Positions 5,922-48,994 of a DNA stretch of 64,000 nucleotides are shown here, piece by piece. This DNA comes from a virus. Its lineage: Duplodnaviria > Caudoviricetes. Location of the stretch: positions 1 to 64,000 of IMG/VR virus record IMGVR_UViG_2565956830_000008; one strand, given 5' to 3'. The notes beneath the pieces are model-generated. The model saw only the letters and a program-made list of their open reading frames with translations. It did not search any database and was not told the DNA's origin. The translations under genes and the position numbers were made by a program. Each line of letters opens with the position of its first letter. Positions within the stretch are counted from its first letter, which is position 1.

Positions 5922-6950
5922 CTAGTTGTCCTCCGAGCTGCTCACTGGGCCGAACTGCACCTTCACCGACTCGCCGTCGCCGTCCGCCGACACGCTCACG
6001 CCCGTGATCTTCATGCGCTGCGAGATGTTCCGGCACGTTGCGGTCGTCGCCACGTCCACGCACCAGCCCGGCACGAGGCGTGCGATGTCCACGCCCGTGT
6101 CTGGGGACAATGTGACCTCCGACGAGTCGATGTAGACCGGCACCGGCAGCGACGCGTTCAGCCGCGACTGGGCTGCCGCATCCGCGCTGACCTGGTCCTT
6201 GATGCTCGTGTCCTGGATGCTCCGCTCGATGAGCCCGTAGTAGGGGTGCACCCCGCCGGCCACGCCCACGATCCCCGAGCCGGTGTCGCCGTAGACGGCC
6301 CACTTCGTCGCCATGGCCGTGCCGTCCTCCTCGACGCTCAGACCGTCCGGAAGGTCGACATCAGTGATCAGGCCGACGCTGGCGCTCCAGTCGTCCGGCA
6401 TCAGCAGCAGCGTCTCCCCGACCGCGGTGAAGTCGAGGCCGGTCTCCGCCAGGTTGCGCAGGTAGTCACCCGTCTGCCCGATGTTCTCCTGGTAGTCGCG
6501 CGAGCCAATGACTCCCGACTGCGCGAGCACAGTCACGCTGTGGCCCGGATCGTCCGGGGCGAAGCCGTCCTCGATCAGCCACTGCGCGATGTCCGTCAGG
6601 TCGGTATTCGTGAACGTCGTGGACTCGTGAGGGGTCCGCCGGTTCAGCACCGAGACGATGTCGGCCGCTGAGATCTGGACCGTGCCCGCCCCCCACTTCG
6701 GTATGAGGATCTGGCCGCCCCAGACGTACGAGCCGTTGCGGTAGATGTGCACCCAGTGCCTCATGGCTCGCATGTCGCCGAGGACGCCGCAGCAGTCGAC
6801 GTCCGGCTCGATCGTCAGGCTCGCCGTGGAGGCGTCGTTCAGGACACGGCTCCAGTCGACCTTCGTGATGACCTGGGCCTGGGTGAGGATCGCCCCGCCC
6901 CGGTCCGCGATGTAGGCGGCGTACTCGGCCGCGCACCCGAGGCCGGCCAT
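5922..6950 (-). CDS. Minor tail protein (ReqiPepy6 Gp37-like/hub)
   Basis: ATG 6950 (MAGLGC); [10 protein letters not shown] and IYRNG..VWGG motifs; second gene after the tape measure. Confidence 0.7.
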
Positions 6951-8290
6951 CAGAGAGCCCGCCCCGACACGGCGAAGGACAGCACAGCGTCCGAAGCGGG
7001 CGCCACGAAGGCATCCGTCTCCAGCAGCAGGCAGTATTCGGCGCAGTCCAGCACGGGCCACGACGGCGGCGCCCCGTCCCTACCGAACACTGTCGTCGCC
7101 GACGAGCAGTCGCCGCCGCAGTAGACCGCAGCCCGCCCTGTCTGCCCGTCCAGGACGAGTTCCGACCCGGCGGCCAGGTAGCTCAACGTCCACTGCGCGT
7201 ACGGCTCACAGCGCTTCCTCTCGGCGATCTCCTCGCACGTCAAGCCCGCGTCGGCGCTGGTCTTCTGGAACAGGCTGATCGTCAACCTCCGCAGGTCGCT
7301 GCTGCCCGCGTACACGCTGATGAGCGGCACATCGTCCATCCACCCCGGCCGGCCGGACAGGTCGATGGCGTACGCGGCCGAGTTCACCGCGAGCGACTCG
7401 CAGAAGCACGTCACCGGCGAGGAGGGAACCGGCGGCGCCACGCTGCCGCAGGCCGGATCGCCGCAGCCGTCCTGGCTGTCCTGGCACTGCTTGAGGCGAC
7501 AGTCGGTGCACTGCGGAATCCAGTCGGGAAGCCGCGGGTCGTGGATGCACCACTCAATGCACTCGTCATCGTCGTCGGTCGGCAGCGCGACACTCAGCAG
7601 CTCGACCCCGTCCGTGTACGCGAACGGGCTCGCCGCCGTCATCGTCCACTCCACGGTGATGACGTCCGCGCCGAGAGAGCACGTACCGCCCGAGCATGAG
7701 CCGTTGCCGTTGCGCGCGGTGACCTTCGGGCCGGACGTCAACGCCACCCGGCGGAACGTCCTGCGGTGCGCCCGGTTGAACTCGTCCCGGGTCATCGTCT
7801 CCCCCGGGCAGCACGCGTACATGTCCACGCAGTCCCCACCGCACTGCGACCCGGTGCAGCCCTGCAACGCCGCCTTGAGGAACTGAAGCCCGTACTCGAC
7901 GCCGCAGCACGTCGCACCGAGCAGGATCCCGGTGAACGTCATCTCCCGCGGTTGCACCCGGGCCGGACCGAGCGACCCGCCGCCCGTCACCGCGGTGCTC
8001 ACCGACCGCTCCACAGGGAAGTCGTCCACGCCGTCGACGCTCAGCAGCAGCACGCCGGCGAACTCGAGACTCTCCGGCGCATCCGGGTCGTACCACTCGG
8101 CCGGGGTCAACGGGTCGTCGGGCGTGGTGTACGGCTGCCCGTCGTCGTCCAGGACCGCCGAGGTGATTGTCTCGCAGCTACAGATCGCCGACCCGCTCGT
8201 GAGCGGCGAGCCGACTGTCTCCAGGTACGCGCGGAGGCGGGCGTGGTTGACCACCTCCACACCGCCCACACTCACGAAATCAGGGAGCAC
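6950..8290 (-). CDS. Distal tail (Dit-like) minor tail protein, Cys-rich
   Basis: 446 aa immediately after the tape measure; REMTFTG, VEWTMTAASPFAY, LVLDG motifs. Confidence 0.7.
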   Translation of the reverse strand: MLPDFVSVGGVEVVNHARLRAYLETVGSPLTSGSAICSCETITSAVLDDDGQPYTTPDDPLTPAEWYDPDAPESLEFAGVLLLSVDGVDDFPVERSVSTAVTGGGSLGPARVQPREMTFTGILLGATCCGVEYGLQFLKAALQGCTGSQCGGDCVDMYACCPGETMTRDEFNRAHRRTFRRVALTSGPKVTARNGNGSCSGGTCSLGADVITVEWTMTAASPFAYTDGVELLSVALPTDDDDECIEWCIHDPRLPDWIPQCTDCRLKQCQDSQDGCGDPACGSVAPPVPSSPVTCFCESLAVNSAAYAIDLSGRPGWMDDVPLISVYAGSSDLRRLTISLFQKTSADAGLTCEEIAERKRCEPYAQWTLSYLAAGSELVLDGQTGRAAVYCGGDCSSATTVFGRDGAPPSWPVLDCAEYCLLLETDAFVAPASDAVLSFAVSGRAL

Positions 8291-12760: not shown

Positions 12761-13187
12761 TCCCACCCCCGTACAGCTCCACCGTGAATTCGAGGATCTC
12801 GGCGACCGCCCGCGTCGGCAGGCGCACCGCGTCGCGGACGACGGCGCCCGGGTGCTTGGCGGCGAAGGCCTGCGCCTCGTCGCCGTCCTGGAACGACTCC
12901 AGGACCTCGCCGCCCTTGACGACGTCCAGGCGCAGGAACAGCTCGGACGTCTCGGGCAGCATCTGCCGGGCCAGGAATACCCGCACTGCCCGCATCGTCT
13001 TCCGCAGGGCCGCGGGGTCGGCGTCTTCGAGGTTCTCCAGGTCGACGCCCTTCGCCTTCTGCGCCTCGCTCAGTTCGGCGTACGCGTCGACGAACTGGTC
13101 CCCCATGACCTCGGGCTCGAACTCAAGCTCGTAGGGGCCGACCTCGACGACGTGGGGCTCGGTGTACAGCTGGATCGTCTTCCGCAC
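12651..13187 (-). CDS. Tail assembly chaperone (G-like)
   Basis: 178 aa upstream of the tape measure, with a low-complexity tail after YGGGNRPT. Confidence 0.8.
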   Translation of the reverse strand: MRKTIQLYTEPHVVEVGPYELEFEPEVMGDQFVDAYAELSEAQKAKGVDLENLEDADPAALRKTMRAVRVFLARQMLPETSELFLRLDVVKGGEVLESFQDGDEAQAFAAKHPGAVVRDAVRLPTRAVAEILEFTVELYGGGNRPTGSSSGSAPRSRPGGRPGTGPSPSRASTRTSGR

Positions 13188-13248
13188 GGGTCATGTCCTT
13201 GTCTCCCGCTCCATGCCCGGCCCAAAACCAGCGGCATCCATGAGAGTA
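13188..13248 (-). promoter_or_regulatory. Late leader element copy 5
   Basis: TACTCT-N11-CTGGTTTTGGGCCG, then 30 nt to GTG; GGGCATG/CATGACCC stem. Confidence 0.75.
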
Positions 13249-37839: not shown

Positions 37840-38085
37840 TCAAAACAAAGACATCGCTTCAACGTCTCCGACATCTCCGTCTTCGGTCTCCACGAGCTGC
37901 AGCTGCTCGCCGGGCACCAGCAGGGGCACGATCGAGAGCGAGCCGGGGCAGGACACCAGGGAATCGTCGTGCAGGCGGCGCCGACCGGGCGGGTCGTGAC
38001 GCCACACACGGCCTTTGCCGGGGCGTCCGGCAACCATCCCGGCGGCGACCCCCCGGCCACAGCTTTCGCACTCGACACGCGGCAT
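37840..38085 (-). CDS. Small Zn-binding hypothetical protein
   Basis: 81 aa, MPRVECESCG...RH...SCPGS. Confidence 0.6.
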   Translation of the reverse strand: MPRVECESCGRGVAAGMVAGRPGKGRVWRHDPPGRRRLHDDSLVSCPGSLSIVPLLVPGEQLQLVETEDGDVGDVEAMSLF

Positions 38086-38153
38086 CTTCACGCCCACCAG
38101 TGTGCCCGGGACGGTGTATGCCGCCGCGCCCCGGACGGCCACGGCCGATGCCG

Positions 38154-39746
38154 CTACCGGCCGATACGGCGCCCGTACGGGGACGCCGGCCGGTTCGGCT
38201 GCACACTGCCCGGTATGCCGCTGCGGGCGCCGCCCTGGGGGGCCTGCGCGAGCGGGGCGTGGACGATGGCGCCCGCGTTGGCCTCCGGGATCAGCCCGTA
38301 CACGAGGACACAGGAGGCGTCGATCCGGCCCGGCGAATCGGGGTCCGTGGGCTGCCAGGTCGACCACTCGCGTTCCATGTCGGGGAACAGGCCACGGAAG
38401 CGGACCTTGTCCTGCACCATCTGCTGGGCGATCGGCTCCGCCCGCAGCAACTTCCCCTGCTTGGCCCGCACCGGCAGGATCGCCGGCATGAGGACGTTCT
38501 TGGGTATCTCCTCGTCCCGCTGGAGCTTCTCCCACGACGTCTGGATCGCCAACACACACATGTCCCGGCCGAAGTTCCACTCGACGTAGATGATCGACGC
38601 GTTCGTGCGGTACGCGAGCCGACAGGCGGCCATGGACCACTCGGCCGACGACATCGGCGCCGACACGTCGTCGGTGATCCACACGCGGCCGTCGTCGCCG
38701 AGGAAACCACCGATGACACCGGCAACGTCCCGGCCGCCACCCGACGGGTCGATCGACACGGCGATCTTCTGCGGCTCCACGGGCGTGGTGGTGTCACGCA
38801 GCAGGCGCAGCAGTTCCTCGGACACAAGCGCTCCTTCACCAGGCTGGGGGTCGCCCTGGTAGAGGGCGTGCCAGTCCCGGACGATCGACGTTGCCTTCTT
38901 CTGCGCCCACCACGCCTTCAACCTGGCGACGGCCCGGCTGGGGATCTTCGGGTGGGGCAGCGGCTCCCCGGGCTCGCGGCCGAGCGGGTCCTCGCCGAAC
39001 TTGGGGTCGGCGACCGCGGGGAGGTGGATCACCTTCCACCGGCCGCCGTCCTCGATGCGGCCCTCTTCCTGGATACGGCGCCCGGCGAAATCGTCGGGGT
39101 GCCAGCGGGTCTGGATCGCCACCACGGCGCTGCGGTCGGGCTGGAGGCGGGACAGGGCCGCCGAGCTGTACCAGTCGTGCAGGGCACGCCGTGCGGCCTC
39201 CGATTCGGCGTCGGCGCGGTCCTTGTGCGGGTCGTCGATGATCAGAAGGTTCACGTCGAAGCCGGTGAGGCCCTTGCCGACGGACACTGAGCGGCAGCCG
39301 CCGCCCGCGGTGACCTCCCAGTCCTGCATCGCCCCGGAGCCGGGCTTCATCCGCAGCTCCCACTCGTCGCCGTACTCCTCGACGTAGCCGCGGATCCTCT
39401 TGCCGCGCCGGAGCGCCAGGTCGTCGCCGTACGAGGTGACCGCGACCTTGTCCACGGGGAACGTGCACAGCCACCAGAACGGGAACCACTCCGCGACCGT
39501 CGTGCTCTTCCCGACCTGGGGCGGGGTCAGGATCAGCAGCCGGTCGTACTCGCCCCGCCCCACCTCGGCCAGCGCATCGCCGATGAGCTTCAGGTGCGGG
39601 CGCATCCGGAAGTTCCGGTCGAGGCCGCGGGCGAGCGTCACCGGATCCCGCAGCAGGTCAGCGCTCATCGCCCGGCGTGCCGCCTCCAGCTGCCGGTAGA
39701 CCTCCTCGTCATCCTGGTGTGCCAGCTCGTCCACGGCCGTCGTCAC
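38154..39746 (-). CDS. terL: Terminase large subunit
   Basis: Walker A PPQVGKS, Walker B LLIIDDP, QTRWH, nuclease SIDP and SPGRIDA motifs. Confidence 0.95.
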   Translation of the reverse strand: MTTAVDELAHQDDEEVYRQLEAARRAMSADLLRDPVTLARGLDRNFRMRPHLKLIGDALAEVGRGEYDRLLILTPPQVGKSTTVAEWFPFWWLCTFPVDKVAVTSYGDDLALRRGKRIRGYVEEYGDEWELRMKPGSGAMQDWEVTAGGGCRSVSVGKGLTGFDVNLLIIDDPHKDRADAESEAARRALHDWYSSAALSRLQPDRSAVVAIQTRWHPDDFAGRRIQEEGRIEDGGRWKVIHLPAVADPKFGEDPLGREPGEPLPHPKIPSRAVARLKAWWAQKKATSIVRDWHALYQGDPQPGEGALVSEELLRLLRDTTTPVEPQKIAVSIDPSGGGRDVAGVIGGFLGDDGRVWITDDVSAPMSSAEWSMAACRLAYRTNASIIYVEWNFGRDMCVLAIQTSWEKLQRDEEIPKNVLMPAILPVRAKQGKLLRAEPIAQQMVQDKVRFRGLFPDMEREWSTWQPTDPDSPGRIDASCVLVYGLIPEANAGAIVHAPLAQAPQGGARSGIPGSVQPNRPASPYGRRIGR

Positions 39747-39749
39747 GGG

Positions 39750-40346
39750 CTACGCCTCCTCGTCCTCGTCGTCGCTGCCGTCCACGGCCTTGATCCGCTG
39801 GTTCACCGACGCCGCCAGCTCACTCAGGCGGGCACGCCGCTGCTCCGGCGGCATCTGCGCGAACTCGGCGAACTGGTGCGCCAGCGCGTTGGTGCCCTCG
39901 CTGGTGACGGCGATCGTCTCCGTGGGGTCACCGAACAGGACACGCCGGTGCCGCATCGCGACGTCCATCAGCCGGATGAAGTCACCGGCCGACAACTCGG
40001 CCGCGTTCAACGTCGTCAGCCGCTGCGCCAGCTTGCCGATCGCTGCGCCGAGGATCTTCGCGTCGGTCTCTGCGGCCCTGCGGCGCTCCTCCAGCCACAT
40101 CGCCTCGTACTGCCGGTCCAGGTGCCGGTCGTAGGCCTCGACGCGCTCACGCCACCGGTACTGGGCGGCGAGGTTCCTCACGTGCCCGTACGCGAGTGTC
40201 AGCCTCCGTGCGGCTTCGGTCAGGGTGCGGGTCCTGCCGAGGTCCCTGTAGGTGGCGAACTGTCCGTGTTTGTGGGGGGTCTCGTTGGGCTGACGTTCCC
40301 ACGGGTCGAGTTCGGGGCTCAGGGTGATGGGTGGACGGGTGCTCAT
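39750..40346 (-). CDS. terS: Terminase small subunit
   Basis: ATG 40346; PWERQPNE...F..YRDLG..R...W.ER...YD pattern; immediately upstream of terL. Confidence 0.8.
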   Translation of the reverse strand: MSTRPPITLSPELDPWERQPNETPHKHGQFATYRDLGRTRTLTEAARRLTLAYGHVRNLAAQYRWRERVEAYDRHLDRQYEAMWLEERRRAAETDAKILGAAIGKLAQRLTTLNAAELSAGDFIRLMDVAMRHRRVLFGDPTETIAVTSEGTNALAHQFAEFAQMPPEQRRARLSELAASVNQRIKAVDGSDDEDEEA

Positions 40347-40558
40347 GTGGCCCGTTCCTCCCGTCGTGCGGTGCCTTCGTAGCGGTAGAGCCATAGGGGG
40401 CCGTCGTCTGCCGGGTTCACGTGACGCCGGTAGACGAGTCGGTAGCCGTCGGCGTTGCGGAGCTCGCAGGTGTGGGGCGGGTTCCAGGGGTCTGCGGGGA
40501 TGGCGAGGAGTTGCCCGTCGACGGGTCCGCCCGCGAACTGGATGCCGACGCTGCTCAT
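40343..40558 (-). CDS. Small hypothetical protein (FAGGPVDG)
   Basis: 71 aa, ATGA-coupled on both sides. Confidence 0.6.
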   Translation of the reverse strand: MSSVGIQFAGGPVDGQLLAIPADPWNPPHTCELRNADGYRLVYRRHVNPADDGPLWLYRYEGTARREERAT

Positions 40559-41484
40559 GACGGGTCGCTGGGGACGTGGTTGGGTCCGGAGAGGTATTCG
40601 CCGGCGAGGCGTTCGAGGAGCCGCCAGCCCTGCCCCTGCTCGATCTCGCCTCGGCCTTCTGCGGCTGCGATGGCCTTGTTGATCGTGACGGCCGCGGGTG
40701 CGGGCAGGGTGCGGGCGCCGAGGACGGTCTCGAGTCCGACGTGCCCGGAGTGGAGGTGGGTGCCGTCGGGTGCGGTGTAGCCCTCGGCGAGTTCGTCGAG
40801 GTGGCGCTCGACGATGGCGAGGATGGCGTGGAGGGCGGTGGCCACGTTGCCGACCTTGTGCGCGGCATGTGTCGAGGCGAGCGTGTCCAGGGTCTGCTCG
40901 TAGTCGGCGCGTGCGGCGAGCCAGGACTCGTTCTGCCCGAGGCGCGCCTGGTTGAAGGCTTCGCGGGCGGCTTCGAGCTCCATGGGCAGGAAGATCAGGC
41001 TCACGGTGGCGAAGTCGAGGTTCGCTTCGGAGAGGCCTTCGGGGCTGACCTCGGCGAGGAGCTGGAGCTGTGCGTCGTCGAGGCCGGAGTAGGCCCGCCA
41101 GTCGACGTCTTCGATCTGGTCGTACAGCTGCTGGAGGGTCGCCGGGTCGTCCTTGCCGGTGATGGCGTTGTGCGACAGCTGCCGGGCGATCAGCTGGTCC
41201 TTCTCCTGCGGGTCGTCGATGAGCAGGCAGGTGATCTCGTCGAGTCCGGCTTCCACGGCCGCGTCGCACCTGTGGTTGCCGGACACGATGAGCTCGGCGC
41301 CCTCCGGGTATTCGCCGGCCCCGTAGATGAGCGGGACGGAGGTGAGGCAGCCGTCGGCCTTGATGTTGGCAACGAGCCGGTCGTACTCCTCCTTGGTCTG
41401 GTAGTGCGCGTTGACGGCGAGGCGGGTGAGGGCGCGCGGGTCGCGCTGGACGAGGCGGGGCCGGATTCGACTGCTGGTGGTCAT
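40555..41484 (-). CDS. ParB/Srx N-terminal domain protein
   Basis: NAH...RLVANIKADG, IVSGNHR, SHNAITGKDD motifs; coupled to the upstream gene. Confidence 0.85.
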   Translation of the reverse strand: MTTSSRIRPRLVQRDPRALTRLAVNAHYQTKEEYDRLVANIKADGCLTSVPLIYGAGEYPEGAELIVSGNHRCDAAVEAGLDEITCLLIDDPQEKDQLIARQLSHNAITGKDDPATLQQLYDQIEDVDWRAYSGLDDAQLQLLAEVSPEGLSEANLDFATVSLIFLPMELEAAREAFNQARLGQNESWLAARADYEQTLDTLASTHAAHKVGNVATALHAILAIVERHLDELAEGYTAPDGTHLHSGHVGLETVLGARTLPAPAAVTINKAIAAAEGRGEIEQGQGWRLLERLAGEYLSGPNHVPSDPS

Positions 41485-42824
41485 CGCATGTCCTTGCCGT
41501 GCTTGGTCTTCCAGAGGGTGAGCGCTTCGATCAGGTCGTAGGCGCCGAGGGGACCGCCGTACTGGAGCTGGTAGCGGTGGATGCCGTCCGCGCCCGGCTC
41601 GGTCCGCTTCTGCAGCTTCACGCCGGGGATGCCCCGCCCGTACTTCGCGCTGTTGGGCCGGTCGGTGAACGCGGTGGTGGCCCAGCCGTCAATCCGCTTC
41701 GACAGCGAGCGTTGGACGAGGAGCTGCGCCTCCTTCGTGGAGGCGGCCATCACGATGAGCTTCGACAGGCGCCGGTAGCGGGTCCACGACACCGGGAAGT
41801 CCGACATCAGGTAGGCGGTGTTCGGGTCGAACTTGGGCGGCAGGTAGGCGAACGCGCCGATCAGCTTCCCGTCGACCGCCACCCCGCACGCGATCAACGG
41901 GCTGCCGGGCTTGATCGTCTTCGACATGAACTGGGAGCGGATCGCCGCGAACTGCCCGGCGTTGAGGACGTGCAGGCTCATGCGGTCGCCGAGGTCCTCG
42001 TTCTGCCCGATCTTCGGCATGGGGATCGGCTCGACGGGCTGCCGGGGGCCGACGATGCGGCGCGGCCCGGCCGCCGCGTACACGTAGATCGGCAGGCCGC
42101 GGTTCGCGGTCTGGACGACGCCGGCGAGCTTGTCCCGCAGCTCGGGGCGTTCGATGTGCAGGCCGAGGACCCAGTTGGGCCGGTCCTGGACCTGCTCGAT
42201 GATGCGTTCCTTGCCGTCCTCGGTGAGCTCGTCGAAGGCTGGCTCGGGCCAGTTGAACGCGGCGTCGATGGACGCGAACTGCGCCTGGTAGTCCTTCGCG
42301 TAGAACGGCGGGAACATCACCACGGGGGCGTCGGCGGGCACCTCCTGGTCGAGGTAGTCGCGGACGTCGCCGGCGAAGAACGAGCCCAGCTTCGTTTGCA
42401 GGCCGCGGAGCTTGCTGGCGGTCTTGTCGTGCATCCGCTCCCACTGGTCGCGGGTGGCGTCCATCATCCGCCGGTAGTAGGCGCCGTCCTTGCCGACGTA
42501 CTGGAGGAAGCGGGTGCCGAGCATGAGGGTGGCGAGGAGGTCGGTGCGGTCCTCCAGGTAGGGCTTGAGCCAGCCGAGGGACTCCTCGTACTCCTCGCGC
42601 AGGGTGTAGTTGAGGTCGTCCCCGGCGAGGTACCAGCCGAGGGCGCACGAGTACGCCTGGATGTCGTTGCCGTGGACGCGGCGGGAGTCGCCGAACCGGG
42701 CGTGCAGCACGCGTTCGATCGTGAAGTTTCCCGAGCAGCCGACGTAGATGTCTTCGCCGGGCCACGTCCCGGCGTGCTCGTAGATGATCGAACGGAGGGG
42801 CGCGGGTATCGAGCCGTGGAACAT
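41481..42824 (-). CDS. Adenine-MTase-fold plus GNAT/Mom-like protein, putative DNA modification enzyme
   Basis: ATG 42824 (MFHGSI) with AGGAG RBS, 447 aa; YVGCSGNF (motif I-like), GNDI, FPPFY (DPPY-like); C-terminal VAVDGKLIGAF...YLMSDF...RLSKL. Confidence 0.65.
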   Translation of the reverse strand: MFHGSIPAPLRSIIYEHAGTWPGEDIYVGCSGNFTIERVLHARFGDSRRVHGNDIQAYSCALGWYLAGDDLNYTLREEYEESLGWLKPYLEDRTDLLATLMLGTRFLQYVGKDGAYYRRMMDATRDQWERMHDKTASKLRGLQTKLGSFFAGDVRDYLDQEVPADAPVVMFPPFYAKDYQAQFASIDAAFNWPEPAFDELTEDGKERIIEQVQDRPNWVLGLHIERPELRDKLAGVVQTANRGLPIYVYAAAGPRRIVGPRQPVEPIPMPKIGQNEDLGDRMSLHVLNAGQFAAIRSQFMSKTIKPGSPLIACGVAVDGKLIGAFAYLPPKFDPNTAYLMSDFPVSWTRYRRLSKLIVMAASTKEAQLLVQRSLSKRIDGWATTAFTDRPNSAKYGRGIPGVKLQKRTEPGADGIHRYQLQYGGPLGAYDLIEALTLWKTKHGKDMR

Positions 42825-42907
42825 GGGCCGCTCCTGAAGTCCGTCTGCGCAGGTTGCGCACCTGCGCGTTTGTCGGCCCATTGTCGGCGGTCGCGTGGAA
42901 TGCGGAA

Positions 42908-42936
42908 GGCCCTCCCCGGGGACTGCGGGGAGGGCC
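42908..42936 (-). terminator. Hairpin just 3' of the tRNA
   Basis: GGCCCTCCCCG/CGGGGAGGGCC inverted repeat, weak U-tract. Confidence 0.5.
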
Positions 42937-42943
42937 AATCGTG

Positions 42944-43018
42944 TGGAGCGCCGGCCAGGGCTTGCACCTGGATCGCCCGACTGGAAGTCGGGCCGTGTTG
43001 CCTTACACGCACCAGCGC
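42944..43018 (-). tRNA. tRNA-Gly(UCC), atypical T-loop
   Basis: 75-nt cloverleaf GCGCTGG TG CGTG TAAGGCAA CACG G CCCGA CTTCCAG TCGGG CGAT CCAGG TGCAAGC CCTGG CCGGCGC T CCA; U73 and encoded CCA. Confidence 0.92.
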
Positions 43019-43060
43019 GGGTGGCGGTCGCGCCGCTGCTCGAACGACCGGCCGATCGGG

Positions 43061-43089
43061 ATCTTACCTCAGCTCCACCGGGTGCGCAG
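43061..43089 (-). promoter_or_regulatory. Putative promoter for the tRNA/modification operon
   Basis: TAAGAT -10 with CTGCGC 17 bp upstream. Confidence 0.45.
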
Positions 43090-43156
43090 TTCGCAGCAGT
43101 GCGCAGCGGGTTTCCCTGTGCCGAGTGGAGAGCACTTCGTGGAGCGCGGCCAAGGC

Positions 43157-44098
43157 TCAGCCCTGCCAGCAGGCGACGGCTTCGACCCGCGAGGACCGCT
43201 CGGCCTCCGCGATGATCTCGGCCATGGACAGGTCGTTGCGGAAGCGGTGCCCGATCTTCTCCTCGATGCGGGCCAGGCGGGCGGCGGGCTCCGGGTTGAG
43301 CTGAGCCGACAGCACGAGCGCCGACTTGGACGCGAGGACGCAGAACATGCAGGACAACCTTGGCATTCCGGCGAGGTATGCCGGGTGTTTGCGCAGGCCG
43401 GACGCTTCGACGGCCGCCCACACGTCGACGGTCGACCAGGTGTGCACCGGATACCAGACGTCGACGTGGCGGAGGGTGTTCGAGGCGCCCCAGCCGGGGC
43501 CGACGCCCTTCGGCACGGGCTGCTTGCGCGCCTTGTACTTCTCGGCCTTGGCCCGACGCGGTACGCACGCATCGCAGGGACATGTCCAGGCGCCTTCGTG
43601 GGTGAAGGCGAGCAGTTTGCGGCGGGCCGGGGACTCCTCGGCGCGTATGCCCATGACGTTGAGGATGCGGACGCGGCCGGTGTGCCCCGCCTCTCGTGAC
43701 TCTTGGACGAGGCGGGTCATCAGGGTCCGCACCGGGCCGCGCTTGAAGTCCGATGTGCACCAGCGGTTGTCGGCGTCGGGGAACATGCCCCGCTCTTCGA
43801 TCCGGTCGATGAGGTCGCCGCCCGTGCGGGCGACGACTTCGAACCGCAGCCCGTAGTAGGCGGCGTGCTCGGCGGCCAGCTCCTTCGTGCCTTCCCACTC
43901 GGCGGAACCGAGGTCGGCGTGCACGCACACGATGCGGTCGAGGACGTCGGCGTCGCGCGCGGCCCAGAACAGCTCGTAGAGCATCGCGATCGAGTCCTTG
44001 CCGCCCGAGATGTTCGCGATGATCCAGTCGTACGAGGCGAGGTCGGGGAGGTCCGACCCGAAGCCGGGCAGGTCGAATGCCAACTGCGCCGTAGACAT
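43157..44098 (-). CDS. PAPS-reductase-family PP-loop protein
   Basis: SGGKDS, RWCTSDFK, GIRAEES..R, HPAY, RLSCMFC motifs. Confidence 0.88.
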   Translation of the reverse strand: MSTAQLAFDLPGFGSDLPDLASYDWIIANISGGKDSIAMLYELFWAARDADVLDRIVCVHADLGSAEWEGTKELAAEHAAYYGLRFEVVARTGGDLIDRIEERGMFPDADNRWCTSDFKRGPVRTLMTRLVQESREAGHTGRVRILNVMGIRAEESPARRKLLAFTHEGAWTCPCDACVPRRAKAEKYKARKQPVPKGVGPGWGASNTLRHVDVWYPVHTWSTVDVWAAVEASGLRKHPAYLAGMPRLSCMFCVLASKSALVLSAQLNPEPAARLARIEEKIGHRFRNDLSMAEIIAEAERSSRVEAVACWQG

Positions 44099-44230
44099 CG
44101 GGAACGCTCCTGGGGGCTGGTGGGCGGGGCGGGAGTGCGCGCCATGGGGCCGTGTGGATCTCGTGGAGGGCCTGGGGGCTGCCGCTTGGGGTGGTGGAGT
44201 GCTCGGGGTGTTGAGGTGCTTAGATCCGCA

Positions 44231-44267
44231 GTGAGGCCGGGGAACGCTGCCTGTTCCCCGGCCTCAC
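44231..44267 (-). repeat. Hairpin with AGGCAGC loop, copy 1
   Basis: 15-bp stem, 7-nt loop. Confidence 0.7.
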
Positions 44268-44277
44268 CCCGCGGTGG

Positions 44278-44613
44278 CTACTCGGGTTCCTCGTAGCTGG
44301 GGGTGGTGCAAGGCCAGCACGCGGCAAGAGCGTGGGAGGCGTAGACGAGGGCCTGCGGGCGGGTGTCGAACCGGGCGGCGTCCTCGGGGTTGTGAGCGCA
44401 GCGCTCGTGCAGCACACCGACGTTCCTGGTGAGCAGGGTGGTCTCGCTGCCGCTGCGGATGACGTAGGGGCCGCCGCCGTCGATGTCCTGCACCTCGTAG
44501 TGCTCCGGGCCGTCGTCGGACGTCACGATGCGGGACAGGATGGCGATCGCGTCCGGGGTGAGGACGAGGCTCACGCTCCGGGTGACTTCGACCGCGTACG
44601 GGCTGGTGCTCAT
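44278..44613 (-). CDS. Hypothetical protein
   Basis: 111 aa with GAAAGGGAA RBS. Confidence 0.6.
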   Translation of the reverse strand: MSTSPYAVEVTRSVSLVLTPDAIAILSRIVTSDDGPEHYEVQDIDGGGPYVIRSGSETTLLTRNVGVLHERCAHNPEDAARFDTRPQALVYASHALAACWPCTTPSYEEPE

Positions 44614-44647
44614 GGCGTTCCCTTTCAGAGCTGGTTGGATGGCGCGA

Positions 44648-44676
44648 GGCCGGGGAGCGCTGCCTGCTCCCCGGCC
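44648..44676 (-). repeat. Hairpin with AGGCAGC loop, copy 2
   Basis: 11-bp stem, same loop. Confidence 0.7.
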
Positions 44677-44692
44677 CTCGTCTGCTGCTGGG

Positions 44693-45295
44693 CTATGCCG
44701 TGGCCGTCTGCGGCGCGGCCAGGACGTGGACGGCGGACCGCGCGCCGGCCGGACGGGGGCCGTAGCACAGGTACTCGCCCCACTCGTCGTTCACGCGCTT
44801 GCCGGATGCGTCCCAGATCAGCGGTCGCCCGCACTGGGCGCAGTTCCCGGCGTCCTCCCCCGGTGTCCCGTGCGGCCGGTCGTCGGCGGCCGGGGCAGCC
44901 TCCTGCTCCTGGTTCTGGTCGGGGTCCTCGGGCAGGTCGACTCGGAAGGCGCCGGGCTGGTCCGGGATCTGCTTCCAGTCGGCCGCCCGGAGCGGGGCAG
45001 TGGTCCGGTGGAAGGTGAGCATGTCGAGGAGCGTGTCCCGGACCTCGGCGCGGATCCGCTCGCTCAGCTTGCCGTTGGTGGTCTCGTCGTTGAACCGCCA
45101 GGTCGTGGCCTTGGCGTCGTGCACGGCGGTCAGCACGCTCGCGTTGACGCTGATGGCGGTGGCGGTGGGCAGCTCCTCGCGGATCAGGTGGGCGATGAGG
45201 AGCAGGGCGCGGTCGATGACCTCGCGCCGCTTCTGGGCGGCTTCGCGGTAGGCGTCCTCGAAGTACTCGGTCCAGAAGGCCTTGGTAGCGGGCAT
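44693..45295 (-). CDS. Hypothetical protein
   Basis: MPATKAFW start; N-terminal FEDAY..A..R domain similar to 45820-46716. Confidence 0.6.
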   Translation of the reverse strand: MPATKAFWTEYFEDAYREAAQKRREVIDRALLLIAHLIREELPTATAISVNASVLTAVHDAKATTWRFNDETTNGKLSERIRAEVRDTLLDMLTFHRTTAPLRAADWKQIPDQPGAFRVDLPEDPDQNQEQEAAPAADDRPHGTPGEDAGNCAQCGRPLIWDASGKRVNDEWGEYLCYGPRPAGARSAVHVLAAPQTATA

Positions 45296-45425
45296 GCGGG
45301 GTGATCCCTTCACGTGTTGGGGTGGGTGGTCGGCACTGGGGTGGCGACCTGGGCGGGCAGCACGCACCAGGCCGTGGCCCGTCGCGCTGCCCGCTCAAGG
45401 GACGGCCAGCTGGCCGTCCGGCCGG

Positions 45426-45701
45426 TCAGGACTTGCGCCGGTTGATGTCGCGGAGGGTGACGCCCTCGGCGGCCAGTGCCCGGCAGATGTTGCCGCGCAC
45501 CCAGCCGCCCCAGCCGTCCGACTTGTACTCGGCGAGGAACTGGCGGACCTTCGGGTGATCCCGGTTGGGGCTGAACGTGCTGGCGAGTTCGTAGGCCAGG
45601 GTCGGTGTGCTCCACGGGCCTTCGAACAGCTCCTGGAAGGTCTCGTCGTCCTCGCGGTCCCAGTACTGGTGGAGGAGGGGCTGCGTGGTGGACTCCGTCA
45701 T
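45426..45701 (-). CDS. Hypothetical protein
   Basis: 91 aa with AAGGAG RBS; first gene after early repeat A. Confidence 0.6.
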   Translation of the reverse strand: MTESTTQPLLHQYWDREDDETFQELFEGPWSTPTLAYELASTFSPNRDHPKVRQFLAEYKSDGWGGWVRGNICRALAAEGVTLRDINRRKS

Positions 45702-45732
45702 TTCTCGCTCCTTGGGCTGTTGGTGGCTGGTT

Positions 45733-45822
45733 GAACTACTTCCATTCTTTCCGAAACAGCTTGCCCTAGCCAGTTAGGGCAAGCTGTTTCAGTAAAAGGA
45801 CTTCTAAGAAAACCGCAGGTCA
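45733..45822 (-). repeat. Early ~90-bp hairpin repeat A
   Basis: TGACCTGCGG...GAAACAGCTTGCCCTA-ACTGGC-TAGGGCAAGCTGTTTC...AAAGAATGGAAGTAGTTC. Confidence 0.9.
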
Positions 45823-46716
45823 GGCGGTCATTTCCGTGAGGAAGGCCAGGGCTGCGTTCAGGTCGCGCGCGCCCTCCACCGCGATGTCGGGGAACTTGGC
45901 GGCCTGGGCGAGCTGCGCTTCGGCGACGATGAACTTGAGGTCGCCGGCGTCGATGGCGGCCTGCATGAGGCCGTCGAAGTCGTTGACCGGCAAGACTCGT
46001 CCGTCGAGGCCGAGTTGGCCGATCATGACCACGCCTCTGACGGAGCCCGCGGGGACGTGACCAGATGCGGCGAGCGCTGTACAGGCGAGGGCGAGGTCGG
46101 CGGCGGAGCCGCCGCGAGCCGCGGTCCAGCAGGCGGTGACGGTCATGTCGCCGAGCGGCCACTGGATGCCGCTGTTGACGATGGCCGCGCGAATCCTGTC
46201 GCGGGTCTCAAGGGCGTACTTCGGGTTCGGGCCGGTGATCCTCATGGCGTGCACTCCCGGCGTGAACTCGGCCTGCACCTTGGCCGGGCCTTCCTGGGTG
46301 GGGAAGTAGCTGCTCGCGGTCTTCGGCGGGGTTTTCGGCAGGCGGATCGTGCGGAGGGGCCGGCCCTGCGGGGCTGCCTTCCAGCCTGCCGCTCCGGCCA
46401 GGTTGCCGAAGGGGATCACGTCGCCGAGGGTGCCCTTGACCTCGTCCGTGATGCTGTCGGGCAGGCCATGACCCGCGGCGGTCGGGGCGTGCCACAGCAC
46501 CTTGCCCTTGGCGTCCGCCACCTCGTGCAGCTCCACCTCGCCAGTGTCGAAGGTGAGCGTTGCGGCTTCGGGCAGGTGCGTGCGGACCAGGTGGGCGACG
46601 TACGCGACCGCGCGTGAGTAGAGGGTGCGTCGGGCGACGCTGGCGGCCTGGTAGGCGTCCTCGAAGGCCTTGGAGTGAACGGCGGTTTCGAGGTCGGTGT
46701 GCAGGGTGTCGGCCAT
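45820..46716 (-). CDS. Protein with C-terminal ComM/YifB (Mg-chelatase-like) N-terminal domain
   Basis: ETRDRIRAAIVNSG, GSAADLALA and GQLGLDGRVLPV motifs; no ATPase domain. Confidence 0.75.
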   Translation of the reverse strand: MADTLHTDLETAVHSKAFEDAYQAASVARRTLYSRAVAYVAHLVRTHLPEAATLTFDTGEVELHEVADAKGKVLWHAPTAAGHGLPDSITDEVKGTLGDVIPFGNLAGAAGWKAAPQGRPLRTIRLPKTPPKTASSYFPTQEGPAKVQAEFTPGVHAMRITGPNPKYALETRDRIRAAIVNSGIQWPLGDMTVTACWTAARGGSAADLALACTALAASGHVPAGSVRGVVMIGQLGLDGRVLPVNDFDGLMQAAIDAGDLKFIVAEAQLAQAAKFPDIAVEGARDLNAALAFLTEMTA

Positions 46717-47183: not shown

Positions 47184-47272
47184 GATCTACATTCATTCTT
47201 CCAAAATGAGCTTGCCCTAACCAGTTTTGTGAACCCTATTCGGCAAAAGAACTTCTAAGAAGCCGCAGGTCA
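47184..47272 (-). repeat. Early hairpin repeat B (degenerate stem)
   Basis: Same layout as A; its TGA is the C5-MTase stop codon. Confidence 0.85.
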
Positions 47273-48994
47273 GGCGGCCAGCTCGTATCGGCTGATCGGC
47301 TCGCCCGTGATGGCTTCGACCAGCGCGCAGTACAGGACCTCAGCCACGGCCGGGGTCACCGCGTTGCCGAGCTGGCGGACCTGGTGCCGCTTCGAGCCCA
47401 TGAGCTTGTACTTCGCCCTGAAGGCCATCGCCCTCGCGATCTCGTGGGGCTGGAGCATCCTGAACAGCACGTCGTCGATCTTGAAGTCGCGGCGGACCAG
47501 TGCGTACCGGTCGCGGGTGGGGAGCGCGCCGATCGGGTCGGTGACCGGCCGGGCCTGGCCGTTGCCGTAGTACGGGACGAGCAGGTGGTCAGGCTGGGTC
47601 ACGAGCCCGTGATGGTTGCCGCCGGCCGTGACCGAGTGAAGCGGCATGCCGAGGTGCCGCGCCTTCTCCTTGTCGCCGCCGCCCCGCATGGGGATCACGA
47701 ACGGCAGGTAGGCGAGGGCGGTCTCCAGGCGGGCCGTCTGGGTGCGCAGCGGGTCCTCCAGCCGCATGGGCTTCTTGCCGTCGCGGCCCTCGCACGGAAT
47801 CAACAGCGGCGGGAACACGATGCCGTCGGTCTCCACGGTCGTCCGGGTGGGCATCGGCAGGTCCAGGCCGATGGCCTTCTCCCGCCAGGTCCCGCCGGCC
47901 GGGACGAGGAGCGGGCCGCCCGGCATCCCCTGGGGTGCCTCGTCGACGTCGCCAAAGAGCGAGCCCTGCCCGTCGTCGAAGAAGTCCTCACCCCAGCCCC
48001 AATACTTGGCGCCTCCGGCCCGCACGCGGGCGATCGTGGCGGGGGCGAGGCCCTCGGGGCAGTCGTCGGTCTTGGACCGGTCGCCGATCGGCGTTCCCGC
48101 GATCGAGAAGTCGATGGCGGCCGCGGCGGGGAGCACGTAGGGCTCGACGATCGCGCGGCAGCCCGAGCGCGGGCAACGGAAGTCGTAGCTCTGCCGGTAG
48201 CGACCCATGTCCCGCTTCGGGTCGCGGAAGACCTGGACGGCGCGCACCTGTTCGTCGCAGTCGGCGCACCAGGCGTCGGGGCGCAGGACCCACTTGTCGA
48301 AGTCGGGGTCGCGGCCGAGGCTCTCGTGCCAGTACACGAAGTACAGGCGGTCACGGCTTTGCGGTACACGGTCCAGGGTGCGCGGGACGACGTGCATCGA
48401 GTTGATCGCGAGGAGCTTCGTCCGGTACCCAAGCTTGTGGAACTCGCCGACCCACCGATCCCATTGGTCCCAGCCCCGGCAGTCTGTGACGTTCTCGACG
48501 ACTCCGGCCAGGACCAAGCCGCCGCGGTTGATCACGCCCCGCAAATACATGGGGACTTCTTCCATGAGGGCGCGGCTGCGCTCCTCGGCGGCCCGGCGTT
48601 CCTTGTCGCTCTTGAACTCCGGCTCTTCGAAGTCGAAATCGCCCTGCATCGTGCGGTCGAAGTCGACCTTCACGCCCCGGGCCGCCGACCACTTCGGGCA
48701 CTCCGGCGACGCCCAGAAGAGCTGGCAGACCGGCCACTTCTCGACCGGGGCCCGGCGGATGTCGCCCTTCCACAGGTCGCAGTTCGGGTTGTTCCACGCG
48801 TGCGTGGCGAGTGCGACGTCCCAGTGGTTCGCGCCTCTGGTGGTCAGCACGCCGGGGACCGCGTCCGCTCCCTGCGTGTCGCCGCCAGCACCGCAGAACC
48901 AGCTCATGGCGGTCAGCACGCTGCCGTCGTGCTTGTAGGCGCGGGCCGGACTGGCGGATGCCCAGGCGCGCGTGGTGGCGTCGATGTAGGGCAT
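47270..48994 (-). CDS. DNA cytosine-C5 methyltransferase
   Basis: FCGAGG, SPEC, ENV, QSRDR and QLGNAV motifs; Cys-rich insertion. Confidence 0.92.
   Translation of the reverse strand: MPYIDATTRAWASASPARAYKHDGSVLTAMSWFCGAGGDTQGADAVPGVLTTRGANHWDVALATHAWNNPNCDLWKGDIRRAPVEKWPVCQLFWASPECPKWSAARGVKVDFDRTMQGDFDFEEPEFKSDKERRAAEERSRALMEEVPMYLRGVINRGGLVLAGVVENVTDCRGWDQWDRWVGEFHKLGYRTKLLAINSMHVVPRTLDRVPQSRDRLYFVYWHESLGRDPDFDKWVLRPDAWCADCDEQVRAVQVFRDPKRDMGRYRQSYDFRCPRSGCRAIVEPYVLPAAAAIDFSIAGTPIGDRSKTDDCPEGLAPATIARVRAGGAKYWGWGEDFFDDGQGSLFGDVDEAPQGMPGGPLLVPAGGTWREKAIGLDLPMPTRTTVETDGIVFPPLLIPCEGRDGKKPMRLEDPLRTQTARLETALAYLPFVIPMRGGGDKEKARHLGMPLHSVTAGGNHHGLVTQPDHLLVPYYGNGQARPVTDPIGALPTRDRYALVRRDFKIDDVLFRMLQPHEIARAMAFRAKYKLMGSKRHQVRQLGNAVTPAVAEVLYCALVEAITGEPISRYELAA

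Follow-up and report, generated by a model that had tools for sequence, protein, structure and literature searches.

The Mom protein of phage Mu takes glycine from Gly-tRNAGly and attaches it to the N6 position of adenine in double-stranded DNA. Mom is a GNAT enzyme, its adduct subsequently rearranges on the base, and GNATs that use or target aminoacyl-tRNA are otherwise described as acting on peptides, lipids, natural products or tRNA (Silva et al., Nat Commun 2026, PMC13219725; here and below, statements from this paper refer to part of its text). In our literature search Mom, characterised between 2023 and 2026, was the one enzyme found to perform tRNA-dependent DNA modification. Here we describe a locus from a 64,000-nt stretch of viral DNA (Duplodnaviria; Caudoviricetes; IMG/VR record IMGVR_UViG_2565956830_000008, positions 1 to 64,000; hereafter the window), in which a tRNA-Gly gene precedes the gene for a 447-aa fusion of a Dam-like domain with a GNAT-fold domain, followed by a gene for a ParB-like protein. 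The best reading of this arrangement is a three-part phage module consisting of a private tRNA-Gly, the fusion enzyme and the ParB-like partner. By analogy to Mom, we propose that a dedicated, non-ribosomal Gly-tRNA feeds glycylation of phage DNA, and assign this proposal a probability of roughly 0.57. A preliminary description of the locus, made from the sequence alone, had given Gly-tRNAGly as the reported donor for Mom, a premise that the paper cited above puts in print.

Like Mom (PF25680, 8bv8), the locus combines a phage-encoded GNAT fold with a connection to glycine tRNA; in both proteins the Gly-rich coenzyme A (CoA) loop is absent by eye, and in both an anti-restriction role is likely. 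Unlike Mom, with which it shares no sequence-family relationship, the GNAT domain described here is fused to a Dam-like domain, is always accompanied by a ParB-like partner and usually has an atypical tRNA of its own, whereas Mom is a single 241-aa domain with a helix-turn-helix-like insert (residues ∼175–209) and essential residues R111, S124 and R151 and uses host tRNAs. The closest precedent for the build of the tRNA is found in staphylococci, whose Fem transferases prefer non-proteogenic tRNAGly species with divergent D and T arms, which EF-Tu does not sequester (Rietmeyer et al., PMC7826273, from the part of that paper available). As in the FmhB/FemXAB system, a GNAT-type transferase stands with a tRNAGly that retains the determinants for glycyl-tRNA synthetase (GlyRS), with the transfer itself being proposed in our case; in contrast, the Fem acceptor is a peptidoglycan precursor, and the Fem tRNAs are chromosomal and belong to the staphylococcal lineage. 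A phage ParB homolog is described, in the available part of PMC13229309, as the activator of a DNA thymine dioxygenase. These 5mYOX/ParB pairs resemble our locus in that a ParB homolog stands alongside a phage enzyme; 5mYOX needs its ParB, whereas activation is only proposed here, and 5mYOX differs in being an Fe/2OG (iron- and 2-oxoglutarate-dependent) dioxygenase that involves no tRNA. With the Dam family (EcoDam, T4Dam, DpnM) the enzyme shares the class I methyltransferase fold, a helical insert between motifs III and IV, and conserved G32 (motif I), D54 (motif II) and D153 (motif III). It departs from that family in its tetrad (FPPF versus DPPY), in the GNAT fusion and in the lack of a sequence-level match to any solved Dam.

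The genes lie on the minus strand in the order tRNA-Gly, enzyme (P0001), ParB-like gene, 71-aa open reading frame (ORF), terS and terL (Table 1). The tRNA-Gly(UCC) is the single tRNA that ARAGORN reports in the window, and the enzyme ORF starts 119 nt beyond it. Three ATGA overlaps read directly from the sequence (41481–41484, 40555–40558 and 40343–40346) connect the enzyme gene, the ParB-like gene, the 71-aa ORF and terS, and terL comes next. The preliminary description had listed these features, including the sole tRNA, the degenerate methyltransferase motifs VGCSGNF and FPPFY, the ParB-like gene and the ATGA linkage of the latter with the 71-aa ORF and terS, and all of them are present at their minus-strand places with the exception of a promoter, discussed below.

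We followed the association of tRNA and enzyme gene in 80 loci from IMG/VR, whose enzymes are 35–96% identical to the window protein, and in 80 loci from GTDB species genomes (loci carry L numbers); the two sets partly overlap (e.g., L019/L104 and L040/L138), and their counts are not independent. A tRNA-Gly-like gene is linked to the enzyme gene in 61 of the 80 IMG/VR loci. ARAGORN finds 55 of these, and a covariance model built from 47 linked tRNAs adds six more (L019, L024, L030, L054, L079 and the cut locus L081). The ARAGORN copies are located upstream on the same strand (52), upstream on the opposite strand (2) or downstream (1); among the 54 upstream calls, 50 are typed as tRNA-Gly and four are untyped because of 6- or 8-nt anticodon loops (L025, L037, L052, L057), and these upstream copies lie 0–360 nt from the enzyme start codon. 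For GTDB, the covariance model detects a copy in 68 loci and ARAGORN in 59. Hosts in this set include Streptomyces, Embleya, Nonomuraea, Micromonospora, Actinoplanes, Kutzneria and Nocardiopsis, and further carriers are metagenome-assembled genomes labelled Bacillota, Chloroflexi, Synergistaceae, Myxococcales, Dormiibacterota and Paceibacterota. The enzyme gene also occurs in 15 cultured-phage records (10 Mycobacterium, 5 Gordonia), and all three cultured-phage loci that we examined have a linked tRNA-Gly-like gene. In Mycobacterium phage Jeon, an annotated tRNA-Gly(tcc) abuts the enzyme gene, and Gordonia phages Jollymon and Clawz carry unannotated copies with an 8-nt T-loop and a defective D-stem, which were missed by ARAGORN and score 48–52 bits with the covariance model. 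Since the only non-Gly tRNA in the 80 IMG/VR loci is a tRNA-Met far from the enzyme gene, the arrangement is far beyond chance. The preliminary description had made its interpretation depend on homologs keeping the linked tRNA-Gly, and most of them do.

The linkage persists through inversion (L083, L085, L165), in a downstream position (L045), at a distance of 1.7–2.3 kb (L024, L079) and with tandem duplication (L069, L175). A quick maximum-likelihood search with IQ-TREE on 82 proteins, from which L039 (intein) and L040 (frameshift) had been dropped, places tRNA-linked loci in both halves of the tree, and the tRNA-less state requires at least four changes. The tandem pairs are CCC + CCC at 1478–1626 of L069 and CCC + ACC at 2272–2423 of L175. 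A reading of the tRNA as a phage attachment site (attP) was rejected in view of its full length and its location in the middle of phage genomes.

The linked tRNAs preserve the GlyRS identity set. The window tRNA has the pairs G1–C72 and C2–G71, the pair G3–C70, which we take to be a further glycylation determinant, as well as U73, C35, C36 and an encoded CCA end. An alignment of 47 linked tRNAs shows no variation at G1, C2, G3, C70, G71, C72, U73 and C36, with C35 conserved in at least 90%. The window tRNA and the 47 linked tRNAs thus carry the GlyRS determinants G1–C72, C2–G71, U73, C35 and C36 as quoted in the available part of PMC7826273. Position 34 changes even between sister lineages: 52 distinct linked tRNAs comprise 34 with UCC, 10 with CCC, 4 with ACC and 4 with loops of 6 or 8 nt, and the GTDB calls comprise UCC (34), CCC (16), ACC (6), GCC (1) and odd forms (3). 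To our knowledge, a glycine tRNA with A34 is foreign to normal bacterial sets.

The body of these tRNAs deviates from that of host tRNAs. A D-loop GG is present in 23 of the 52 linked tRNAs versus 86 of 91 host tRNAs, a T-loop starting with TTC in 38/52 versus 82/91, and a purine at position 37 in 38/52 versus 87/91. Many lack G18G19 or U55; the T-loop of the window tRNA, UGCAAGC, has a G at position 55. The Rfam model RF00005 (gathering threshold 29 bits) matched none of five linked tRNAs (window, Jeon, Jollymon, L061 and L077), with no match for the window tRNA even at E ≤ 0.1, while three of three control host tRNAs matched with 75, 71.4 and 67.7 bits. The host, with a genome of 11.76 Mb and 69.7% G+C, already has canonical tRNA-Gly genes for GCC, UCC and CCC, and GGA accounts for 26 of 559 Gly codons (4.7%) in 11 prophage genes versus 6.7% in 401 host ORFs, and is hence not enriched. 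This atypical build supports a private glycyl carrier, and the nucleotides retained and lost suggest that the linked tRNA is made for being charged, presumably with glycine, and not for decoding.

A second atypical tRNA-Gly(UCC) was found outside the window on host contig C156 (77231–77301; 5232–5302 of L098), next to an endonuclease V-like ORF. It has the T-loop TGCGAGG and U37 and does not match RF00005 at E ≤ 1. Its setting is chromosomal, and the enzyme gene is present in a single copy, with no homolog found elsewhere in the host genome. This tRNA could be the host's own non-ribosomal tRNAGly, serving for instance a glycine cross-bridge of the cell wall.

The enzyme belongs to a large family. 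At E ≤ 1e-3 a search yielded 844 cluster representatives (50% identity), of which 265 remain at E ≤ 1e-30; most are full-length proteins with both domains. The two Pfam families are named "DAM-like-phage1" (Phage DNA adenine methylase-like domain 1, PF22555) and "GNAT-phage-like" (Phage GNAT-like domain, PF22559), and were the only Pfam matches of P0001 at E ≤ 0.1; the Mom family PF25680 was not matched. Homologs are called "putative antirestriction adenine methyltransferase" by NCBI and UniRef, the PHROGs match (phrog_7858) is listed with function unknown, and NCBIfam has no model for P0001. Searched by sequence against PDB chains, the protein and its family profile gave chance matches only (calmodulin kinase, capsid proteins), and no solved Dam was matched by the N-terminal domain at this level. 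Structures were compared as well; the AlphaFold model of the whole protein has a predicted local distance difference test (pLDDT) score of 92.9.

VIA-align assigns the N-terminal domain to the class I methylase fold and shows a target-recognition insert like that of Dam. The longest structural alignments, including the helical insert, are those with the DNA adenine methylases DpnM (Z 12.0, 199 residues aligned), Mcbe1 (Z 11.5, 198), EcoDam (Z 11.4, 187) and T4Dam (Z 11.6, 181), at Z scores that are tied with generic methylases. Across 50 aligned homologs, the cofactor motifs I–III are kept, and the departure is confined to motif IV. Motif I (CSGN) lies within VGCSGNF at residues 28–34; G32 and D54 never vary, and D153 is conserved in at least 90%. 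Motif IV (residues 171–174, within FPPFY at 171–175) reads FPPF in the window protein and (F/Y)PPF in all 50 homologs. The first position is never D, N or S, in departure from the Dam-type consensus (D/N/S)PP(Y/F/W).

Inteins of about 250 aa are found exactly after FPPFY (between residues 175 and 176 of the window protein). At least eight 50%-identity clusters contain such an insertion, at residues 176–178; carriers are P0015, P0023, P0024, P0029, P0120, P0128, P0142 and others, as well as loci L039 and L153. The inteins have a Cys at the start, His-Asn at the end and a Ser thereafter; the one in P0015 is classical, and one carries a LAGLIDADG domain. Inteins tend towards functionally critical sites, and their position directly behind FPPFY indicates that the motif IV pocket is important.

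The C-terminal domain had been assigned to the GNATs by eye in the preliminary description, whose interpretation would have fallen had this been wrong. This call holds, and the domain has the GNAT core β1-α-β2–4-α3-β5-(α4)-β6–7: besides the match to PF22559, both Foldseek and VIA-align recover many GNATs (Z 9–11.3) with a 178-residue construct that was modelled with a pLDDT of 95.3 and shows no obvious insert. Of 48,161 chains compared by VIA-align, 1y9k and 3bln scored highest (Z 11.3), Mom (8bv8_B) ranked third with Z 10.7 (root-mean-square deviation 3.1, 140 residues aligned), and RimI reached Z 10.6. No Fem-type or L/F-transferase (leucyl/phenylalanyl transferase) structure was among the best 50 matches listed, which is not evidence against similarity. 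Residues invariant in 47 sequences include D342, F343, K394, Y395 and G398. GNATs that use acetyl-CoA have a pyrophosphate loop, Q/RxxGxG/A, between β4 and α3. The C-terminal domain lacks such a loop; residues 345–356 (SWTRYRRLSKLI) are free of glycine, as is the consensus of 50 homologs. A possible counterpart of Mom S124, judged by eye, is S354, which is S or A among homologs. The domain is a GNAT family separate from Mom, which it resembles only in fold and context.

The third component is the ParB-like gene. All 83 loci compared have a homolog of it downstream of the enzyme gene, in most cases no more than 70 nt away. The window protein matches phrog_7405 (3e-61), ParB phrogs (∼1e-9) and ParB/Srx clusters of the ESM Atlas (0.98), and has no Pfam match at E ≤ 0.1, PF02195 included. 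Conserved motifs are LSGNHR, QLSHNAIxGEDD and YSGLDD. The first of these represents the GxxR box of an N-terminal ParB/Srx domain, with S68, G69 and R72 being invariant in 39 sequences. In L033, the ParB-like gene (6107–7057) contains an in-frame stop; this locus also has no tRNA, and the module may be decaying there. Coupling of the module to the terminase genes, another element of the preliminary description, turned out not to hold generally: among the 80 IMG/VR loci, 39 have a terS homolog no more than 4 kb away, and by the same test none of the three cultured-phage loci has one.

Based on these observations, we propose the following mechanism. The tRNA would be transcribed at the head of the operon and charged by the host GlyRS, as expected from its intact acceptor-stem, discriminator and C35–C36 elements. 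Because of its degraded D-loop, T-loop and anticodon-loop features, the charged tRNA would be accepted poorly by EF-Tu and the ribosome, and the Gly-tRNA pool would thereby be reserved for the enzyme. The GNAT domain would then take the glycyl group off the 3′ end of the tRNA and place it on a base in double-stranded phage DNA, the likeliest acceptor being N6 of an adenine that the Dam-like domain holds. The ParB-like protein would activate the enzyme or target it on the DNA, and the glycine-derived base would shield phage DNA from host nucleases. In its outline, this agrees with the interpretation given in the preliminary description, of which the GNAT fold, the tRNA linkage and the Mom premise stand; its Mom-like label comes down to analogy and a shared fold, and its coupling to terminase does not hold in general. 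More tentatively, and with confidence somewhat short of even, we suggest that the tRNA has left translation altogether and serves only as a glycyl cofactor for a new DNA-modifying family in phages of many phyla (Actinomycetota, Bacillota, Chloroflexota and others), in which a GNAT unrelated in sequence to Mom, a re-purposed Dam fold and a ParB-like activator produce a glycine-derived base. The base written may be new, since a retained S-adenosylmethionine (SAM) pocket could methylate the adduct further.

Several observations weigh against glycylation of DNA by a Mom-like route. The structural score of Mom is tied within one Z unit with those of ordinary acetyltransferases (1y9k, 3bln), and hhalign gave a probability of only 3.5% for the C-terminal domain profile against a 29-member Mom profile and of 0.5% against the single Mom sequence; the term Mom-like from the preliminary description is thus justified for the shared fold and not for the family. 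No tRNA-like gene lies within the flanks of 19 of the 80 IMG/VR and 12 of the 80 GTDB loci; in these 19, the covariance model found no copy even with its filters off, one of them being a locus without upstream sequence. In one Streptomyces genome (L101, 2220–2500), the enzyme is 93% identical and the tRNA is replaced by unrelated sequence while the leader hairpins are kept, which represents a recent loss of the private tRNA. Such tRNA-less loci indicate that the private tRNA can be dispensed with or that the host can supply one. The GG of the D-loop is retained in about 44% of the linked tRNAs and the TTC of the T-loop in 73%, and some linked tRNAs may still decode. In addition, the conservation of motifs I–III makes it possible that the N-terminal domain still uses SAM, in which case its role would be other than proposed. 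A base-binding module, the part given to this domain in the preliminary description, is one possibility, with motif IV altered and motifs I–III kept. Finally, the highest Z scores of this domain are those of TrmN (12.4), Trm14 (12.3) and ErmE (12.3), tRNA and rRNA methylases that are equal over the core, so that a nucleic-acid target other than DNA has to be considered.

We regard it as unlikely, though best placed among the alternatives, that the enzyme uses or acts on Gly-tRNA with an acceptor that is not DNA. The glycyl group could be passed to a protein (the ParB-like partner, a packaging or a capsid protein) or to a small molecule, the methylase-like domain could modify the private tRNA, or the Gly-tRNAGly could itself be acylated, as by GNAT toxins such as TacT. 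The linkage is by itself silent on the acceptor, the tRNA methylases TrmN and Trm14 are among the top matches of the N-terminal domain, and known GNATs working with aminoacyl-tRNA serve the diverse substrates listed at the outset (PMC13219725). However, the longest alignments of the N-terminal domain (181–199 residues) are with DNA adenine methylases, the ParB/Srx-like partner is present in all 83 loci and has the fold of a protein that activates a phage DNA base-modifying enzyme (PMC13229309, in the part cited above), and the module often stands beside packaging genes, all of which argues for DNA.

It is quite improbable that the tRNA-like element acts mainly in cis as an RNA signal, either as a processing site for RNase P or RNase Z that sets the mRNA 5′ end or as a sensor of glycine charging. 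Such a role would suit its position directly upstream of the enzyme gene and in the same orientation in 52 of the 54 upstream ARAGORN calls, and also the conserved hairpins between tRNA and start codon. The leader (42825–42943) folds with a z score of –3.07 into two stable hairpins between the tRNA 3′ end and the ribosome-binding site, the first of which (42908–42936) is kept in relatives, L101 included; together the hairpins (42847–42936) could serve in termination, attenuation or processing. Processing would not, however, require the glycine identity set and C35–C36, which are invariant or nearly so in the 47 tRNAs, and the linkage survives inversion, downstream placement, large distance and tandem duplication. 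A last reading takes the protein for an ordinary DNA adenine methyltransferase that counters restriction and has an acetyltransferase domain as an accessory, next to a normal phage tRNA-Gly that aids the decoding of rare Gly codons. This would fit the protein's database name, the conserved motifs I–III and the fact that phages commonly carry tRNAs, but is hardly credible in view of a motif IV without D, N or S in first place in 50 diverse homologs, an anticodon that varies between sister lineages and includes ACC and 6- or 8-nt loops, five of five linked tRNAs unmatched by RF00005, no enrichment of GGA in the prophage of a host that decodes all Gly codons, and the linkage of glycine tRNAs alone to the enzyme gene.

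Our literature search retrieved no description of the enzyme family or its tRNA linkage and no paper on PF22555, PF22559, "GNAT-phage-like", "DAM-like-phage1" or "antirestriction adenine methyltransferase"; on tRNA-dependent DNA modification it gave the Mom papers and otherwise unrelated work, and the supplementary similarity network of Mom homologs could hold fused forms. In the part of PMC13219725 considered here, the words "fusion" and "methyltransferase" are absent and "tRNA gene" occurs once. If the proposed reading is true, tRNA-dependent DNA modification would be widespread, as judged from the 844 cluster representatives, and the module would contain the first virus-encoded tRNA dedicated to a non-translational job. 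It would also explain the "orphan" single tRNA-Gly genes of actinobacteriophages, represent a second ParB-activated DNA-modifying system, and possibly provide a new DNA base useful for restriction evasion and biotechnology. Harmless cultured phages of Mycobacterium smegmatis and Gordonia allow a direct test of this proposal. For annotation, the linked tRNAs of two Gordonia phages have been missed, and the enzyme is currently labelled a methyltransferase.

Table 1. Features of the module in the window and tRNA-Gly-like genes of two Gordonia phages
Feature	Position	Strand	Evidence or remark
–10-like hexamer TAAGAT	43061–43066	–	43 nt upstream of the tRNA; weak promoter candidate only
Atypical tRNA-Gly(UCC)	42944–43018	–	ARAGORN; cloverleaf as minimum-free-energy fold
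GC-rich hairpin, 11 bp	42908–42936	–	directly 3′ of the tRNA; RNA fold
Second leader hairpin, 8 bp	42847–42867	–	just before the ribosome-binding site; RNA fold
Ribosome-binding site AGGAG of the enzyme gene	42833–42837	–	
Enzyme fusion gene (P0001), 447 aa	41481–42824	–	ORF; Pfam PF22555 + PF22559
Dam-like class I methyltransferase-fold domain, residues 2–272	42009–42821	–	PF22555, E 5.5e-106
GNAT-fold domain, residues 280–443	41496–41987	–	PF22559, E 4.7e-57
ParB/Srx-like partner, 309 aa	40555–41484	–	phrog_7405, 3e-61; overlaps the enzyme gene by ATGA
71-aa ORF	40343–40558	–	ATGA overlap at each end; lineage-specific
terS, 198 aa	39750–40346	–	phrog_6299, 2.7e-22; start codon set from sequence
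terL, 530 aa	38154–39746	–	phrog_38, 1.1e-83; PF03237
Jollymon tRNA-Gly-like gene	L001 5821–5894; record 13125–13198		anticodon CCC, encoded CCA
Clawz tRNA-Gly-like gene	L002 5823–5896; record 13046–13119		anticodon UCC, encoded CCA

The putative promoter of the preliminary description was not recovered: a scan of 40200–43400 for the sigma-70 consensus returned no site, and only the –10-like hexamer is visible. Relatives have TAnnnT or TATCAT hexamers at similar places. A megablast search with positions 38000–46000 against the phage collection gave no match.

Two neighbouring genes were considered as further components of the module and rejected. The 71-aa ORF has a homolog in only 3 of the 80 IMG/VR loci. 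The gene directly upstream of the tRNA (43157–44098, minus strand) encodes a PAPS-reductase/DndC-like protein (PF01507, 9e-8; phrog_424). Only 10 of the 80 IMG/VR loci contain a homolog of it, which is full-length in seven. The same prophage also carries a gene for a 574-aa C5-cytosine DNA methylase (47270–48994, minus strand; PF00145). Given this gene and the PAPS-reductase/DndC-like gene, the prophage DNA may be modified in more than one way.

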